Origin: a virus
Virus genome (UHGV): UHGV-0180141
Length of the DNA stretch: 20,019 bases
Reading direction: 5' to 3' (one strand)
Shown in pieces: positions 2,571 through 18,688 of the stretch. Positions within the stretch are counted from its first letter, which is position 1. The number at the start of each line of letters is the position of its first letter. The notes under the pieces are model-generated. The model had not been told where the DNA came from and did not search any database. It worked only from the letters and a program-made list of their open reading frames with translations. Position numbers and translations under genes: made by a program.

Positions 2571-4736
2571 ATGGCCGACGAAAACAGACTCAATTCCATT
2601 CTGTGTAAGTTTGACGCAGACTGGATGGCGAGCGATGAAGCCAGAACCGAGGCGACAAATGACCTGTATTTTAGCCGAGTGTCGCAATGGGATGACTGGC
2701 TATCAAACTACACTACCCTGCAATATCGCGGACAATTCGATGTTGTTCGCCCGGTGGTCAGGAAACTGGTCGCAGAGATGCGCAGGAACCCTATCGACGT
2801 TCTCTTCCGACCCAAAGACGGCGCTAATCCTGATGCTGCCGATGTGCTGATGGGGATGTATCGTACTGATATGCGCCATAACACGGCAAAAATTGCCGTT
2901 AACGTTGGCGTTCGTGAGCAGATAGAGTCCGGCGTTGGTGCATGGCGTCTGGTCACGCAGTACGAAGACAACGATCCAACAAGCAACAATCAGGTAATTC
3001 GACGCCTGCCAATTCATGAAGCCTGCTCACACGTCATATGGGACGCCAACAGCAAGCAGATGGATAAGAGCGACGCTAAGCACTGCACGGTGATTAACGC
3101 TTTGTCACGCAATGGCTGGAAAGAGTTCGCAGAGGATTACGGTATTGATCCGGATACCTTGCCATCTTTCCAGAATCCGAACGATACATGGCTGTTTCCG
3201 TGGGTATCGAATGATGTCGTCTACGTCGCTGAGTATTACGAGGTCGAAGAGAAGAAAGAGAAAGTCTTCATCTACCGCGACCCACTGACAGGTGAGCCAG
3301 TCAGCTATTACCAGCAGGATATCAAAGACGTCATCGACGACCTGGCTAATCGTGGATTCATTAAGGTAGCAGAGCGTAAGGTGAAGCGTCGGCGTGTGTA
3401 TAAGTCGATTATCACCTGCACGCAGATACTGAAAGACCGCGAGAAGATAGCCGGAGAGCATATTCCAATCGTTCCAGTGTATGGCGAATGGTCATTCGCT
3501 GGTGACAAGGAGTGCTACGAAGGAGTGGTAAGGCTGACGAAAGACGGTCAACGCCTTCGTAACATGATCATGTCGTTCAACGCCGATATTGTTGCTCGTT
3601 CACCGAAGAAGAAACCGACCTTCTTCCCTGAGCAAATCGAAGGCTACGAATACATGTACGGTGGAAATGATGACTATCCGTACTATCTGCAGAACAGGAC
3701 CGATGAAAACGGTAACGACCTGCCGATTGGTCCAATCTCCTACATGGAAAACCCTGAAGTGCCGCAAGCCAACGCTTACATGCTTGAGGCTGCCACCAAC
3801 GCAGTGAAAGAGGTGGCTAGTCTTGGTGTGGATGCGCAGGCAGCAAACTCTCAGGTCGCTTTCGATACCGTCAATCAACTGAACATGCGGGCAGACCTTG
3901 AGACATACGTGTTTCAGGATAACCTGGCTACCGCAATGCGACGTGATGGCGAGATTTATGCCTCAATGGTCAATGATATTTATGACGTTCCTCGTCATGT
4001 AACGCTGACACTTGAAGATGGAAGCGAGAAAGACGTTCAACTCTATGCGCAAGTTGTCGATTACCAGTCCGGCAATGTGGTCACACTCAACGACATTCGC
4101 GGTCGCTATGAGTGCTATACAGACGTAGGACCATCCTTCCAGAGTATGAAGGAACAGAACCGCGCAGAGATTCAGGAGTTGCTCACCAAGGTTCCGCAAG
4201 GTACTCCAGAGTTCCAGATGCTGATGCTGCAATACTTCACGCTGCTTGACGGTAAAGGCGTCGAGATGATGCGAGAGTACGCGAACAAGCAACTGGTGAT
4301 GATGGGGCTGAAGAAGCCAGAAACACCTGAAGAGATGGAGATGGTACAGCAGGCTCAACAGCAGCCGCAGCAGCCATCAGCAGAGCAAATTCAGGCGCAG
4401 GGTATCCTTCTGCAAGGTCAGGCTGAATTGCTCAAGGCAGAGAACCAACAGGCGCAGATTCAGGTTGAAGCCGCCAAGGTTGAAGCCCAAAACCAACTCA
4501 ACGCCGCGAAGATTGCAGAAATCTTCAACAATATGGACCTCGACAAGCAGGCAGAACTGCGTGAGTACCTCAAGCTCGTAGGTCAATTCCAGCAACAGCG
4601 CAGCAAGGACGCTCGTGCTAACGCTGAGCTGCTTCTTAAAGATGCAGACCAGACTCATTCACAACGCATGGATTTCGCGAATCTTATGCGTCAAGTTCAA
4701 ATCCCCTCCGGCGGAGTAGCCGAGACACCTCAATAA
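2571..4736 (+). CDS. portal protein (P22 gp1-like)
   Basis: 721 aa (P22 portal is about 725); ATG abuts the terL stop (TAAATG); long Q/A/E-rich helical C-terminus consistent with the P22 portal barrel; position after terL. Confidence 0.93.
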
Positions 4737-4749
4737 GAGAGAGTTAATC

Positions 4750-5661
4750 ATGGACCAAACCACCGACATTCAGGCTTCTGAAGAATTAACCCTGCCCGGC
4801 AATCATGCAGCGGCATCTGCTGATGGCTTAGTTGTCGATAATGCCAACGACAACGCAGGTCAGGAAGAAGGCTTCGAGATTGTCCTGAAAGACGATGAGA
4901 AACCAAAACAAGACCCGGCAACTAATGCTGAATTTGCCCGTCGCCGCATCGAACGCAAACGCCAGCGTGAGCTTGAGCAGCAGATGGAAGCGGTTAAGCG
5001 TGGAGAATTGCCGGAGCACCTGCGGGTGAACCCTGAGTTACCGAAACAACCAGACCCTAACGATTATCTTTCCGAAGATGCACTGGCTAAGTACGACTAT
5101 GACCAGAGCCGCGCACTGGCTGCCTTCCAGCAGGCAAATAGTGAATGGCAGATCAAGGCTATGGACGCACGAAGCCAGGCTGTCGCCGAGCAGGGTCGCA
5201 AAACTCAGGAGTTCACCCAGCAATCAGCGCAATACGTCGAGGCAGCCCGTAAGCACTACGACGCAGCGGAAAAGCTCAATATCCCTGACTATCAGGAGAA
5301 AGAGGATGCATTCATGCAACTGGTGCCGCCAGCAGTCGGTGCCGACATCATGCGCCTCTTCCCGGAGAAATCCGCCGCTCTCATGTATCACCTTGGTGCT
5401 AATCCTGAGAAAACACGCCAGTTGCTGGCGATGGACGGGCAATCCGCGCTGATTGAACTCACTCGACTGTCAGAACGTTTAACTCTCAAGCCTCGAGCCA
5501 AGCATGTTTCAGAAGCCCCGTTACCTGATGAGCCAATTCAGGGACACGCTGTTGCTGCAAATATCTCTGCGATTGAAAAGCAGATGGAAGCGGCAGCAAA
5601 CAAAGGGGATGTAGAGACATACCGCAAGCTCAAGGCGCAACTGAATAAAGGAATTCGATAA
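4750..5661 (+). CDS. scaffolding protein (P22 gp8-like)
   Basis: 303 aa, the P22 gp8 length; highly charged, helical, Ala/Glu/Lys/Gln-rich; sits between portal and coat. Confidence 0.88.
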
Positions 5662-6183
5662 TTATTTCGATATCGTGATGTTGTTTTCCTCGTCAAACTT
5701 TCTGATTACTTCTTTCGCCTCTTCGAATGAAGAACATACTTTTTGCACTCTTGCATTAAGCAGTCGCTTATGAGCGATCCATCTTTTCCGCGTGTTGCAA
5801 AAGTAAACTCCAGATATTCCGCTGGAGTTATTTTTAGATAGTTTGATTCTATTCCTTTGGTTTGCTGATTTTTTCACAAGACGAAGATTTTCAATTCTGT
5901 TGTCGTGGCGAATCCCATTTATATGGTCAATTTCCATGCCTTCTGGAATATCTCCGTTAAACATTACCCATACGATGCGGTGTGCTAGCCACTTAATGCC
6001 GTTAATTCTTATGCGGATATATCCATTGCTTTCTAAAAGACCAGCAACTTTCCCAGCGTGTTTTGCATTCCAAACGTTGTGATAGTTGCGATTCTTTTTG
6101 TTGTTGAAAAATTCAGAGCTTCTGGCTTTCCAAACCAAAGAACCATCGCGGTATTCGAAGTATTCATTCAGTTCCATGCTCAT
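5662..6183 (-). CDS. HNH homing endonuclease (HNH_3 domain plus C-terminal AP2-like DNA-binding domain)
   Basis: Protein contains NGYIRIRINGIKWLAHRIVW...IDHINGIRHDNRIENLRLV (HNH_3-type motif with His/Asn catalytic residues) followed by SGISGVYFCNTRKRWIAHK (AP2-like). Antisense to the late operon, AT-rich relative to its flanks, and its stop abuts the scaffold stop. Confidence 0.85.
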   Translation of the reverse strand: MSMELNEYFEYRDGSLVWKARSSEFFNNKKNRNYHNVWNAKHAGKVAGLLESNGYIRIRINGIKWLAHRIVWVMFNGDIPEGMEIDHINGIRHDNRIENLRLVKKSANQRNRIKLSKNNSSGISGVYFCNTRKRWIAHKRLLNARVQKVCSSFEEAKEVIRKFDEENNITISK

Positions 6184-6250
6184 AACCCTAATGCGCTATA
6201 TGTTGATATAACAATAGTATAGCACATAAAGAAAGTAAGGTATTCAATAT

Positions 6251-7546
6251 ATGACTCTCAAAGAAGGGCAGTTAGTTACTTACGCTATCGATGAAATCAT
6301 CGAAACCGTCCAGAACTTGACGCCAATGGCGTCCAAAGTGACAAAATACACCCCCCCGGCAGAATCCATGCAACGTTCAAGCAACACCGTGTGGATGCCT
6401 GTTGAGCAGGAAGCGCCAACTCAGACTGGCTGGGATTTAACTGGCAACGCTACCGGGATTCTGGAACTCTCCGTGAAATGCAACATGGGTGATCCGGATA
6501 ACGATTTCTTCGAGCTTCGTGCAGATGACCTGCGTGATGAGCGTTCTTACCGTCGCCGCATCCAGGCATCAGCCAAAAAACTGGCGAATAACATTGAGTC
6601 AGCGATTGCCAAACAGGCAACTGAAATGGGCTCGCTTGTTGTTCACGATACCCGCGCAATTGGTCCATCTACTGGCCTGTCTGGCTGGGATTTTGTGTCT
6701 GATGCAGAGCGCCTGATGTTCTCCCGTGAGCTAAACCGCGATATGGGCATCAGTTACTTCCTGAACCCTGACGATTACCGCAAAGCAGGCCGCAACCTGG
6801 TAGATGGTGACATCTTTGGGCGCGTTCCTGAAGAAGCGTATCGCAACGGTACTATTCAGCGTCAGATTGCTGGCTTTGATGAAATTCTTCGCTCACCGAA
6901 ACTTCCGGCAGTTACCAAGTCAACCGCTACTGGTGTAACTGTTTCTGGTGCGCAGAAGTTTAAGCCGCAGGCATACACCCTTGATACCGATGGTAACAAA
7001 GAGAACGTCGACAACCGTGTTGCAACGGTGACCGTATCCTCCACCACCGGATTTAAGCGCGGCGACAAAATCAGCTTCACTGGCGTGAAATTCCTGTCTC
7101 AGATGGCGAAGAACGTGCTGACTGATGACGCGACTTTCTCAATCACCCGTGTGATCGATGGTACTCACATCGAAATCACGCCGAAGCCTATTGCGCTGGA
7201 TGACGCGTCACTGACAAAAGAAGAGAAGGCTTACGCTAACGTAAACACCTCTCTTGCTGATACCACTCCGGTAAACGTTCTGAACGTGGCAACAACCACC
7301 GCTAACGTGTTCTGGGCTGATGACTCAATCCGTCTGCTGTCTCAGCCGATCCCGGTAACCCATGAGCTGTTTGCTGGCATGAAAACGTCTTCCTTCAGCA
7401 TTCCTGGTATTGGTGTTAACGGCATCTTCGCAACGCAGGGTGATATCAACACTCTGTCTGGTAAGTGCCGTATTGCTGTGTGGTATTCAGCATGTGCTGT
7501 ACGACCAGAGGCAATTGGTGTTGGTCTGCCTAACCAGACCGCGTGA
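6251..7546 (+). CDS. major capsid (coat) protein (P22 gp5-like)
   Basis: 431 aa (P22 coat is 430); conserved blocks recognisable from P22 coat ([52 protein letters not shown]). Confidence 0.95.
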
Positions 7547-13051: not shown

Positions 13052-15787
13052 ATGGCTAATTACCGTGATTTGTTAGAGCAGGCTGGCGCACGTTACGGTG
13101 TGCCAGAAGGGTTGATGACTGCACTGGGTGCCAAGGAGTCTTCTTACAACCCTGCCGCAGTAAGCTCCGCCGGGGCTGTAGGATTGACTCAGGTCATGCC
13201 TGGGACATGGCGTGATATGGGTTATACCGATGAGCAAATGCAAAACCCCGAATATCAGGCTGACGCTGGCGCGCGCTATCTGGCAAAGATGTACCAGCAG
13301 TTTGGTAACTGGCGTGACGCTCTTCAGGCTTATCACGACGGCCCCGGCAACGTTATGAAGGCAAAGCGTGGTGAATATACGCCAGGACCTGAAGGCCGCG
13401 GTTACGTTGATGATCGCTTTGCTCAATGGGCGGGTGACCCGGTGACAGACTCAACAGTCGAACAGCGCGCCACCTCTGCAAAGGTACATCCTCAGCAAGA
13501 CCCTAACAACCCGTTTGCACAACTGGAAGCACAGTCATCCGAACAAGTATCGGCATCAGGCGTGCAGTCAGACCCAAATAATCCATTTGCTCAGATTGAG
13601 CAGCAGGCAGCCAGTCAGCAGCCACCTCAACCCGTAAGTTCTGTCGCACCGAAACCTGTTCAGCAACAAACAGTTAATCAGGCCAATAATGCACCAACAC
13701 GGGAAGAACCATCATTGATGCAACAAGCTGGTGATTGGCTCACAGGTGGTCAAAGTGCAGGGCAAATTGCAGAGCAGGCTGGTCGTGGTCTGGTAAACAT
13801 ACCATTTGACGTATTGCAGGGTGGCGCAAGTCTGATTAATGCAATCAGCCAGGGGCTTGGTGGCCCCAAGGTTTTGGACGATGTCTATCGTCCAGTAGAT
13901 CGACCGACAGACCCTTATGCGCAAGCTGGAGAGTCAATAGGCGGTTATCTTGTTCCTGGAGCAGGAGTAGCTGGAAACATGGTCATTGGTTCTCTCGCTG
14001 ACGCGGCGAATCAACGGGGTGATTTTGCCGAAAATGCCGCTATTAATGCCGGACTTAACATTGCTACGCATGGCCTGATAAATGGCGTTACCCGTGGTGT
14101 TCGTGGCGCATCAAATATAATTAGTGGCAATAAAACATCTGCACAGAGAGCGACCACTGCGCCAACAGAAACATCACCATTCTCCGGTGATGCCGCTGCA
14201 GCAACAAATCCTGCGGTTCATGCCGCAGAGGCAAGAGCAGCACAAGGTGTACCAATGACGCCTGCGGCGAGGGACCCAGAGGAGGTCGTTCGCACAGTAG
14301 CAGCACAAAAAAGGCCAAATCTCGCTTCATCGCTTGATGAACTAGATATCAATCCTCAGGCTGAAGTTCTGGAGTCTGCTGAAAGGCTTAATGTTGATTC
14401 ATTACTCCCTTCACACTTTTCCGGGAACGAGCAATACAAGGCAGTTGAGCAAGCAATCAAGTCCCGTGCGGGTTCTGCTCTACGGGTGCAGGAAAATGAA
14501 GCAATCAGGCAACTAGCACAGGGCGCGGGGGAGATAATTGATCGCGTTTCCGGTGCAAAAGATGCTCTTGGTATGAGCGACAAGTTTATTGATACGATCA
14601 ATGGAAGAATGTCTGCGCTGATGAAACGAAGCGACCAGCTTTATCGCAATGTTGAAAAGGCGATGCCTGCAGGTGCAAAAATTGATGCGCCATCAACAAG
14701 GTCAATGCTCAAACAGGTGGCAGAAGATCTTGGCGGGATGAAAAACCTTGACCCTATTGAAAAGAGAGTCTTTCGGGCAGTTAATCCAGGCAAGAACGGC
14801 GCATTAACTTATGCAAATCTCAATAAGCAACGACGACTTGTTGGTGATGCACTTCATAAGAAGTCTGGACCATATAAAGATGCTGATCGCGCTGCTTTAT
14901 CGAGGCTTTACGGTTCGCTCGCCGATGATCAAAAGGCGGCGCTGTCAGAGACAAATGCATTACGTGATTTTGAAGTTGCTCAGAGGCTTGTTCAGATGCG
15001 AAAAAGCATGGAAGAGCAAATGATTAATCTAACTGGCAGAACACTGAACGGTGATGTTTCTCGCAAAGCAACTACAGCACTACAGGCAATGTCGAAAGGC
15101 GATGCCAAAGGATTTCGTGAATTGATGCAAAACACGCCGTCCAGGAAGCTAAGAACCGAGCTACTGGGAACAGGTCTTCGGGATATGCTTTCGAACGGAA
15201 AACGTGGCGCTGATTTTAATCCTGCAGGGTTTGCTGACTGGTATCAAAACATGTTAGCAAACGGGCAGATGCGCAATCTTGCCCGACATTTACCAAAAGA
15301 GACTATGTCAGGTCTGAACGATGTATATAAGGTCGCAAAGGCTATCAAAGACGCAAAATCTTACGAGATAACTACAGGAAGACTAAACGAGTTCGTCAAA
15401 CGGTTTAATCGCGTCACTGCGGCAAATGAATTTGTTGCTAACCATGCCCAACGCATTGGCACTGCGGTTGGTTCAACTGTGTCAGGACCGTTCAGTGCAG
15501 TAGGTGCTGTTGCTGGGTCAGAAATTGGGGCAAAAGTCGCCAGCAAAATCAGGGCGATGGGCGGCGCTGAATCAATTGAATCTGCAGAAAAGCTAATTAG
15601 CTCACCAGAATTCCAGAAAGCAGCAAGGCTGGCAGTAAAACAAGCACCAGAAAGCATCGTTGATACAACTGTAAGACGCTCTTCTGCTTGGCGCTCGTTT
15701 TACAACTCACTTCCAGAATCAGATAAGAAAACCATATCAAGGCTAGGCATCATGTACTGGATGAACAGTGATGATAACCAGAAGTAA
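13052..15787 (+). CDS. ejection protein (P22 gp16-like) with N-terminal lytic transglycosylase (SLT) domain
   Basis: 911 aa. N-terminal ~110 aa carries SLT-like motifs ([10 protein letters not shown] with candidate catalytic Glu, [19 protein letters not shown]); then a Q/P-rich linker with a tandem DPNNPFAQ(L/I)E repeat, then a long helical/Ala-Gly-rich body. Last gene of the plus-strand string, start abutting the gp20-like stop. Confidence 0.85.
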
Positions 15788-17809: not shown

Positions 17810-18688
17810 ATGAAAAGTATAGCAAAGGCACAAAACGATTTCACCATCTTCAAATTCGGCGACAGTGAAATCCGCGTCATCAACAAGTGCGGTGAGCCGT
17901 GGTTTGTAGCAAAAGATGTTTGTGATGCTTTAACTCTGACTAACTCACGCAAGGCGCTTACTGCACTTGATGACGATGAGAAGGGAGTAACTTTAAGTTA
18001 CACCCTTGGTGGTGAGCAGAATTTAAGCATTGTGAGCGAATCAGGTATGTATACATTGGTTCTGCGCTGCCGCGATGCAGTCAATAAAGGTTCAGTCCCG
18101 CACAAATTCCGCAAGTGGGTAACAGCAGAAGTTCTGCCTTCAATTCGCAAACATGGCGAGTATGTAAAAGGAAAGAAAACCACTGTTGAGGAAAGAACAC
18201 CGCTACGAGATGCAGTAAACATGCTGGTAGGAAAGAAAGGACTTCGCTATGACGATGCATACAATATGGTTCATCAGCGTTTTGGTATTGACAGCATTGA
18301 TGAACTTTCAATTGAACAAATCCCGCTGGCCGTAGAGTACATCCACAGGGTAGTGCTTGAAGGTGAGTTCATTGGCAAACAAGAGAAGAAAACCAACGAG
18401 CTTTCTGCAAAAGAAGCAAACAGCCTTGTATGGCTATGGGATTATGCCAACCGCTCACAGGCATTATTCCGCGAATTGTATTCGGCGCTAAAACAAATTC
18501 AATCGAACTATTCCGGCAGATGCTACGACTACGGTCATGAATTCTCGTATGTTATCGGAATGGCGAGAGACGTTTTAATCAATCACACACGAGATGTTGA
18601 TATTAATGAGCCAGACGGACCAACGAATCTTTCCGCATGGATGAGACTTAAGAATAAAGAATTACCTCCTTCAGTACATAACTACTGA
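17810..18688 (+). CDS. ant: antirepressor Ant (BRO-N/KilA-N-type N-terminal domain)
   Basis: 292 aa (P22 Ant about 300); N-terminal [18 protein letters not shown]...[10 protein letters not shown]...[17 protein letters not shown] is the Bro-N/antirepressor signature; follows arc. Confidence 0.85.

Follow-up and report, generated by a model that had tools for sequence, protein, structure and literature searches.

The homing endonuclease I-HmuI is encoded in a group I intron, ends in a C-terminal helix-turn-helix, and acts as a strand-specific nickase. Here we examine a relative of that enzyme encoded in a cassette between the scaffold and coat genes of the UHGV virus genome UHGV-0180141, of which a stretch of 20,019 nucleotides (hereafter the window) was analysed. 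The window enzyme groups with the HNH_3 homing endonucleases of the type found in the Bacillus phage SPO1 (I-HmuI, PDB 1U3E), but differs from that protein in being freestanding, an Rfam scan of positions 5300–6600 at E ≤ 1 having returned neither an intron nor any other RNA family, and in carrying an apparent AP2-like beta-sheet domain at its end. Freestanding HNH-AP2 endonucleases have been described in the Xanthomonas phages Xp10, OP1, and Xop411 (PMC2248197) and in T4-related phages (PMC2993671); those elements share with the present one the succession of HNH_3 and AP2 domains as well as an intergenic location that is polymorphic for presence and absence, whereas the member in the window has a degenerate AP2 domain, occurs in a temperate P22-like podovirus, and occupies the scaffold/coat junction of the late operon.

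Intronless homing has been shown experimentally for the freestanding Seg and Mob enzymes of T4-type phages, for example SegB (PMC2330249; review in PMC2988022). As in those systems, the cassette sits between conserved genes, its flank seems to have been co-converted, and the carrier has diverged at the expected target; in the present instance, however, the homing features come from comparative genomics, the enzyme is of the HNH rather than of the GIY-YIG class to which Seg belongs, and the phage is temperate, so that encounters between prophages and phages would be possible. Within the same phage group, elements of this class are known at other genomic sites, namely a homing endonuclease gene between terminase and portal in SEN22 (PMC5261728) and the eaE-HNH fusion constituted by gene 31 of epsilon34 (PMC2629481). 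A study on ICP1 reportedly places nuclease genes at the boundaries of genetic exchange between phages (PMC10448857); the likeness is that here, too, an endonuclease stands exactly at a recombination boundary between similar phage genomes, and the difference that the study concerns lytic Vibrio phages and other nuclease families.

We propose that the block between the window's scaffold stop and coat start is a freestanding homing endonuclease cassette inserted exactly there, whose enzyme would combine a beta-rich N-terminal region for DNA binding, an HNH_3 nuclease, and a degenerate AP2-like domain; to this explanation, taken as a whole, we assign a probability of about 0.8. A search of the accessible literature found no published description of an element at the scaffold/coat junction; it goes unmentioned in the announcements of the carrier phages Dewey and Louie as well as in the BASEL paper, and database records label it only as an "HNH endonuclease" by automatic annotation. 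This element is thus a new and well-documented case of a known type and not a new kind of system. Homing endonucleases have been well studied in lytic T4-type phages and much less so in temperate lambdoid or P22-like phages, in which setting prophages and infecting phages meet constantly.

The cassette and its site

The window corresponds to the late region in a P22-like (Lederbergvirus) Escherichia coli phage or prophage, with the genes arranged in the order small terminase, large terminase, portal, scaffold, coat, head-completion and ejection proteins, and an immI-like region that holds an Arc/Mnt-like gene and ant. The features of the junction, among them the endonuclease open reading frame (ORF), are the following:

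5662–6250, no strand assigned: inserted cassette of 589 bp, made up of the endonuclease ORF and a 67-bp control region, missing from otherwise near-identical phages
5662–6183, minus strand: ORF of the HNH-AP2-like endonuclease, 173 amino acids (ORF list, PHROG 99, PADLOC)
4750–5661, plus strand: scaffolding protein gene, homolog of gp8 and left flank of the insertion (Pfam Phage-scaffold, E 7.5e-180)
6251–7546, plus strand: coat (major capsid) protein gene, right flank of the insertion (Pfam P22_CoatProtein, E 1.5e-164)

A first-pass annotation of the window had held that in the P22 layout the scaffold gene runs almost directly into the coat gene and that some 590 bp are interposed here, both of which statements agree with the alignments: the two genes overlap in a TAATG in P22, L, IME10, APC_JM3.2, and Bas106, while the interposed block measures 589 bp, the net gain of the carriers being 590 bp because one base is shared within the TAATG of the empty alleles. 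The boundaries of the insertion are exact when the carrier Dewey is aligned with the empty phages APC_JM3.2, Bas106, IME10, and L. Equally accurate were the descriptions of a 173-residue protein on the opposite strand containing the quoted motifs and of a stop codon abutting that of the scaffold, the complement of the endonuclease stop (5662–5664) directly adjoining the scaffold TAA (5659–5661); the coat ATG is at 6251. The endonuclease would have 171 residues if translated from the second in-frame ATG, at 6177, which start may be the one used to judge from the Shine-Dalgarno spacing. The gene lies between two complete ORFs of the opposite strand, and thus in neither an intron nor an intein setting. 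The block is visibly AT-rich, as had been noted: the GC content is 0.36–0.41 across 5600–6300 versus 0.50–0.57 in the flanks, the deepest trough of the structural module, with values of 0.389 for the endonuclease gene, 0.529 for the scaffold, 0.512 for the coat, and ~0.38 for the whole 589-bp block.

The endonuclease-free allele that the annotation proposed to look for was readily found. APC_JM3.2, Bas106, HZ41, and IME10 have flanks 97–98% identical to those of the window and the scaffold/coat overlap TAATG, which overlap is present in the more distant phage L as well, whereas Dewey and Louie carry the block at 99.7–100% identity. A screen of 5,426 complete E. coli genomes gave 20 that contain the block at 99.1–99.9% identity and ~190 others that match the flanks only, so that carriers make up 20 of the ~213 flank-matching genomes (~9%). 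The insert is accordingly a minority allele and not a fixed feature; the gene occurs in a minority of P22-like prophages, its composition is foreign, and its product contains an HNH domain (see below); neither of the two outcomes named beforehand as contradicting the annotation was thus obtained.

This distribution bears on the notion that the protein might be a packaging-associated HNH factor aiding the terminase, similar to gp74 of HK97, as in some cos phages. The gene does lie within the head-morphogenesis cluster, 3 kb from the terminase genes, but it is absent from the viable relatives P22, L, IME10, and Bas106; is encoded antisense to the morphogenesis operon, between scaffold and coat; and specifies an HNH_3 plus AP2-like protein nearer to I-HmuI than to the small HNH partners of terminases. 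Moreover, DNA packaging in P22-like phages follows the headful (pac) mode, which requires no HNH packaging factor. We give this alternative a practically negligible probability, and discarded it together with an intron-encoded origin on the grounds of position, orientation, dispensability, and the lack of an RNA family in the scan cited above.

The site is retained in diverged relatives. A search of 5.8 billion proteins gave only four clusters with at least 59% identity to the endonuclease, and the three diverged ones (at 82, 74, and 59%), from metagenomic contigs, are all encoded antisense between a scaffold and a P22-type coat gene, in flanks only 64–80% identical to those of the window. The IMG/VR relatives at 51% identity or less, in contrast, are never found beside P22-type head genes. 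Because the diverged homologs share the site while the more remote relatives lie elsewhere, the endonuclease clade is, on these comparisons, specific to the scaffold/coat junction, and the association is an old one. In the deep lineages the nucleotide identity of the endonuclease gene (72–78%) is close to that of scaffold and coat (69–80%), the three diverging in parallel. A search for isolate relatives of the diverged carriers found none for the lineage L006 and only coat matches of ~70% for L012.

In a separate observation, L012 (a contig of SRR26282656 and the most diverged carrier) has an endonuclease gene that does not abut the scaffold stop, an 11-nucleotide gap being present at 3340–3350 of that contig; a GC hairpin (GGGGCGGTAAGCCCC) extends across the scaffold stop, possibly as a bidirectional terminator between the convergent genes, and is absent in the other lineages.

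Domains of the endonuclease and selection on its gene

Two regions of the protein could be delimited:

5854–5988, minus strand: HNH_3 catalytic domain, amino acids 66–110, with conserved H68, D86, H87, N99, and N108
5686–5823, minus strand: putative C-terminal AP2-like DNA-binding domain, amino acids ~121–166, degenerate in sequence, modelled as three beta-strands plus a helix

The HNH_3 motif of the first-pass annotation was borne out by Pfam, PF13392 scoring 78 bits against a gathering cut-off of 24.8 (E 3.9e-22) over profile positions 2–46 of 46. In a 46-sequence alignment H68, D86, H87, N89, N99, and N108 occupy invariant columns, and all of them are present in the window protein, whose sequence thus contains the residues expected of a beta-beta-alpha-metal nuclease, with a predicted D-H general base, a structural Asn, and a metal-binding Asn. 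The protein also matches PHROG 99, "HNH endonuclease" (1.3e-50), and two "homing endonuclease" models of PADLOC (1.2e-11). The AlphaFold model (predicted local distance difference test, 86.8) is similar in fold to a solved HNH homing endonuclease, I-HmuI being the only solved relative found by sequence.

The AP2-like motif that had likewise been predicted fared differently according to the level of comparison. As a single sequence the window protein stayed below the threshold of Pfam AP2 (PF00847), with 15.7 bits versus a cut-off of 33.3 (E 0.019) and a match limited to profile positions 1–19 of 54; its isolated C-terminus scored 18.2 bits, a search for AP2 with NCBIfam gave no match, and the usual LGxF strand motif is absent from this member. 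At the level of the family, by contrast, AP2 matches at E ≤ 1e-3 were obtained for 19 of the 46 homologs in the alignment (1.4e-11 for the best), whose AP2 domains correspond column for column to the C-terminus of the window protein. The family profile, for its part, matches I-HmuI at 4e-8 as well as the AP2/ERF proteins WRI1 at 3.4e-5 and TEM1 at 4.8e-3, the latter two over profile positions ~89–153, and the modelled C-terminus is a three-stranded antiparallel sheet packed on one helix, which is the AP2 topology. The motif is thus upheld by alignment, profile, and predicted structure, and we regard the C-terminus as a degenerate AP2-like domain at the level of family and fold only.

The endonuclease ORF is under purifying selection. 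When compared with the homolog of the lineage L011, the proportions of nonsynonymous (pN) and synonymous (pS) differences were 0.098 and 0.69, resulting in a nonsynonymous-to-synonymous ratio (dN/dS) of 0.055, against 0.066 for the coat; in the other pairs of lineages the synonymous sites were saturated and the pN of the endonuclease was still 0.17–0.26.

Co-conversion patch, spread, and candidate target

The exchange between carrier and empty alleles can be followed in nearly isogenic genomes, and for this comparison, that of diversity, and that of the target, three further features are needed:

6254–6289, plus strand: co-conversion patch at the 5' end of coat, with 14 substitutions between carriers and empty alleles
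2571–4736: portal gene
6263–6271, plus strand: GAAGGGCAG, coat codons 5–7, predicted immunity version of the target, GAAGGTCAA in empty alleles

The IMG/VR contig L020, a carrier, and the empty Bas106 differ over 4,844 aligned bases by the 589-bp block, which is the only indel, by the 14 substitutions of the patch, and by 5 scattered single-nucleotide polymorphisms, so that 14 of the 19 substitutions are concentrated in the patch. The 14 differences in 36 bp (with the amino-acid changes A2T, N4K, and L13I) compare with a divergence of ~1.8% elsewhere; the patch is nearly invariant among carriers, and no comparable cluster of substitutions was found on the left side of the insert. This pair looks like the product of a gene conversion that a break initiated and that carried along only a short co-converted tract. 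Such partners are also available in culture, since Dewey and Louie (carriers) and Bas106 (empty) are in a public collection and share the same E. coli K-12 plating strain, Dewey and Bas106 differing by 0.2% over the 2.4 kb to the left of the junction. For the phylogeny of P22-like phages and for capsid engineering the patch entails a caveat: in carriers the coat gene is uncoupled from the scaffold, and its first 13 codons are exchanged together with the element.

A third allele is present in eight E. coli genomes (e.g. ECONIH6), in which an empty junction is accompanied by 10 of the 14 patch substitutions, GGG CAG included, and only the first four patch positions (6254–6259) are of the empty type. 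This allele could have arisen by loss, or by a repair in which only the patch was copied, or it could be the setting in which the patch originated. Apart from the junction, the coat gene of the ECONIH6 prophage (L013, NZ_CP026199) is near-identical to that of the window until ~6670 and is thereafter highly divergent and 3 bp longer, the coat gene itself thus containing a sharp mosaic boundary.

To compare the diversity of the cassette with that of its surroundings we used 14 carriers: the window, Dewey, and 12 IMG/VR contigs. The nucleotide diversity (pi) was 0.0035 in the cassette and 0.0037 in the patch, versus 0.0177 in the portal, 0.0116 in the scaffold, and 0.0201 in the rest of the coat, the cassette therefore being 3–6 times less diverse than its flanks. 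Segregating sites numbered 9 of 589 in the cassette against 231 of 3,656 in the flanks (Fisher p 1.4e-7); among third codon positions the figures were 5 of 173 and 198 of 1,216 (p 1.2e-7). In addition, the nearest neighbours by flank sequence mix carriers with non-carriers, Dewey and L020 pairing with the empty Bas106, and L026 with the empty APC_JM3.2. Because the cassette has so low a diversity and its carriers are interleaved with non-carriers, we conclude that the cassette is younger than the genomes that carry it; which result favours a recent spread into several backgrounds over an ancestral presence followed by repeated loss. The earlier interpretation of the insert as a selfish homing endonuclease thus gains support from the polymorphism, the near-isogenic pair, the co-conversion tract, the low diversity, and the fidelity to one site.

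These same data enter into the evaluation of two rivals. According to the first, the insert is ancestral and the empty alleles arose through repeated precise losses, a view that accommodates the joint divergence of endonuclease, scaffold, and coat among the deep lineages—pointing to an old association—and the empty ECONIH6-type alleles with their partial patch, which resemble possible products of loss. That scenario nevertheless predicts a cassette as diverse as its flanks instead of the 3–6 times lower value observed; furthermore, the empty alleles restore the exact TAATG and GGT CAA found in P22 and L-type phages, which are only ~81% identical to the window, so that a loss would need recombination with an empty relative anyway. 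We hold an ancestral insert to be very improbable.

The second rival considers the block to be a passive insert of the moron type, moved by ordinary homologous recombination, with an endonuclease that is either inactive or irrelevant. The anatomy is moron-like enough—a promoter-like element of its own, an AT-rich foreign composition, and a place between two late genes—and the head regions of P22-like phages are mosaic hereabouts, both in the ECONIH6 coat after ~6670 and in the variable region downstream of the coat. Against that interpretation, the catalytic residues are intact and invariant, and purifying selection has been strong over a synonymous divergence that reaches saturation; the reduced diversity and the interleaved carriers indicate that the cassette spreads faster than its neighbours; and the exchanged tract, from the scaffold stop to 36 bp into the coat, is very short, which better fits a conversion initiated by a break. 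A passive insert consequently seems to us distinctly improbable.

Under the preferred explanation of homing, the course of events that we infer, including the cleavage, the exact target, the immunity mechanism, the promoter, and the timing of expression, would be as follows. A phage or prophage bearing the cassette would meet a related genome with an empty TAATG junction, which genome the enzyme would nick or cut at the start of the coat gene or close by, GAAGGTCAA being the candidate core of the site. Recombinational repair from the carrier would then copy the cassette along with the adjacent ~36 bp of coat, and the carrier itself would be protected because its site is no longer joined to the scaffold end and has been recoded, for the most part by synonymous changes.

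That candidate core came from a scan of the junctions in IMG/VR in which any synonymous codon was allowed at coat positions 6–7, in a pattern that excluded the ECONIH6-type allele. At least 120 empty junctions, representing 18 haplotypes and several sublineages, all had GGT CAA (GAAGGTCAA) among the matches listed, while the neighbouring synonymous sites varied in those same matches. All four carrier lineages (that of the window along with L006, L011, and L012) have GGG CAG, the 9-mer GAAGGGCAG being invariant even though synonymous sites are otherwise saturated. We propose from these alignments that GAAGGTCAA, which lies 13–21 bp away from the point of insertion, forms part of the sequence that the enzyme recognizes or cleaves; the two synonymous changes from GGT CAA to GGG CAG, along with the disrupted junction, would protect the carriers. 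With an exact insertion, a tract of 36 bp, and a predicted immunity that depends on 2 nucleotides, the locus offers a clean natural system.

Control elements, transcription, and neighbouring regions

The 67-bp spacer between the endonuclease gene and the coat is conserved among the four carrier lineages and contains two putative control elements:

6216–6224, minus strand: candidate extended -10 element TGCTATACT for the endonuclease gene, ~33 nucleotides upstream of its ATG
6235–6240, plus strand: Shine-Dalgarno-like GTAAGG, 10 nucleotides before the coat ATG and borne by the cassette

The pattern TGNTATAMT has only 2 matches in the 20-kb window, one of which is the element at 6216–6224; the -10 box is found at the same position in 4 of 4 carrier lineages and the TGn extension in 3 of 4, for which reason we propose the element as a candidate promoter of the endonuclease gene itself. 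A standard -35/-10 scan of the spacer revealed nothing relevant on either strand. As to translation of the coat, an AAGG or an equivalent GGTAGGA is kept upstream of that gene in L006, L011, and L012, and the cassette appears to supply an independent ribosome-binding site in replacement of the lost translational overlap at TAATG. As a test for a target-site duplication, the 24 nucleotides before the coat ATG were compared with the scaffold 3' end, which gave a shuffle p of 0.01 in the window, of 0.28–0.73 in the other three lineages when each was set against its own scaffold end, and of 0.01–0.4 against the sequence of the empty alleles; the likeness of the right end of the cassette to the scaffold end may reflect a shared Shine-Dalgarno sequence and AT-rich spacer.

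Several of the foregoing observations weigh against the homing explanation or limit its reach. At least two TGNTATAMT matches occurred in 13 of 100 shuffles, so that the rarity of the motif is not significant by itself. The four lineages may share the patch by descent, in which circumstance their GGG CAG would not constitute four independent observations; or the conservation of those codons could stem from constraints on the mRNA or on translation initiation that are not the same for a coupled as for an uncoupled start of the coat. The ECONIH6-type alleles show that the patch is not strictly tied to the cassette, and it could in part have been pre-existing variation. The parallel divergence in the deep lineages fits a long vertical residence as well as it does a repeated homing. 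Finally, the near-isogenic pair alone cannot separate a gain from a loss, and the polarity therefore depends on the argument from diversity and not on that pair.

The candidate promoter is also relevant to a reading in which the endonuclease is kept mainly as a weapon of the phage against related or superinfecting phages, that is, for exclusion, possibly with expression from the prophage and with homing as a secondary effect. The persistence at one site and a dN/dS of ~0.05 across four lineages suggest selection for activity, the conserved sigma-70-type extended -10 element is independent of the late promoter, and PADLOC lists related "HEase" models among its candidate defence proteins. The rarity of the element (~9% of the matching prophages), though, is unlike that of a strongly beneficial gene, and exclusion, in depending on the same cleavage step, is compatible with homing. 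As the main function of the enzyme we find it highly doubtful.

A combination of the two, which we advance as a speculation and think unlikely on the whole, would make the cassette more than a parasite: an endonuclease expressed by the prophage would cut incoming P22-like phages, thereby both excluding them and converting the survivors into carriers. Its own extended -10 promoter would keep the gene on in the prophage and early in infection, and head-on late transcription would shut it off; the cut would fall at the 9-bp coat core GAAGGTCAA, GGG CAG would be immune, and the ECONIH6-type alleles would be escape variants. Were this so, a homing endonuclease would drive the competition between prophages and phages and would hold one mosaic boundary in place within the head module of P22-like phages.

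The first-pass annotation had further implied that late transcription must traverse the insert in antisense. Because all the downstream genes are on the plus strand and a promoter scan found no plus-strand promoter-like site between the endonuclease gene and the coat, such an antisense read-through is a reasonable deduction from the gene arrangement. The P22 late genes form a single antiterminated transcript, with which a read-through agrees. We considered whether a plus-strand terminator-like hairpin at 5806–5829 might block late transcription; this structure is not conserved in L006, L011, or L012 and is probably incidental. A different hairpin of terminator type, CGCCAGCAACTGGCG with a T-rich run after it, is located on the minus strand at 5416–5430, inside the scaffold gene and ~230 nucleotides past the endonuclease stop, where it could end the antisense endonuclease transcript.

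The second TGNTATAMT match (TGCTATACT) is at 17816–17824, again on the minus strand, a short way into the anti-repressor gene ant, which starts at 17810. P22 has its promoter for the small antisense sar RNA at this place, and the match suggests a sar-like antisense regulator in the immI region of the window.

Two other regions drew our attention. Between the coat and the homolog of gp4 (Ad3), the segment 7543–8305 is variable among relatives, whose identity to the window there falls to 88–96%, and it is annotated differently in each of Dewey, APC_JM3.2, Bas106, and IME10; in the window it includes a 94-residue ORF (phrog_1175, function unassigned) whose GTG start codon overlaps the stop codon of the coat gene, and the gp4 homolog is called at 191 residues, with ~25 extra N-terminal residues with respect to the PHROG profile. 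The last ejection-protein gene, in the gp16 position (13052–15787, plus strand), encodes a protein of 911 amino acids with an N-terminal region resembling lytic transglycosylases, which protein has PHROG matches to transglycosylase and "lytic tail" families and appears larger than the gp16 of P22.

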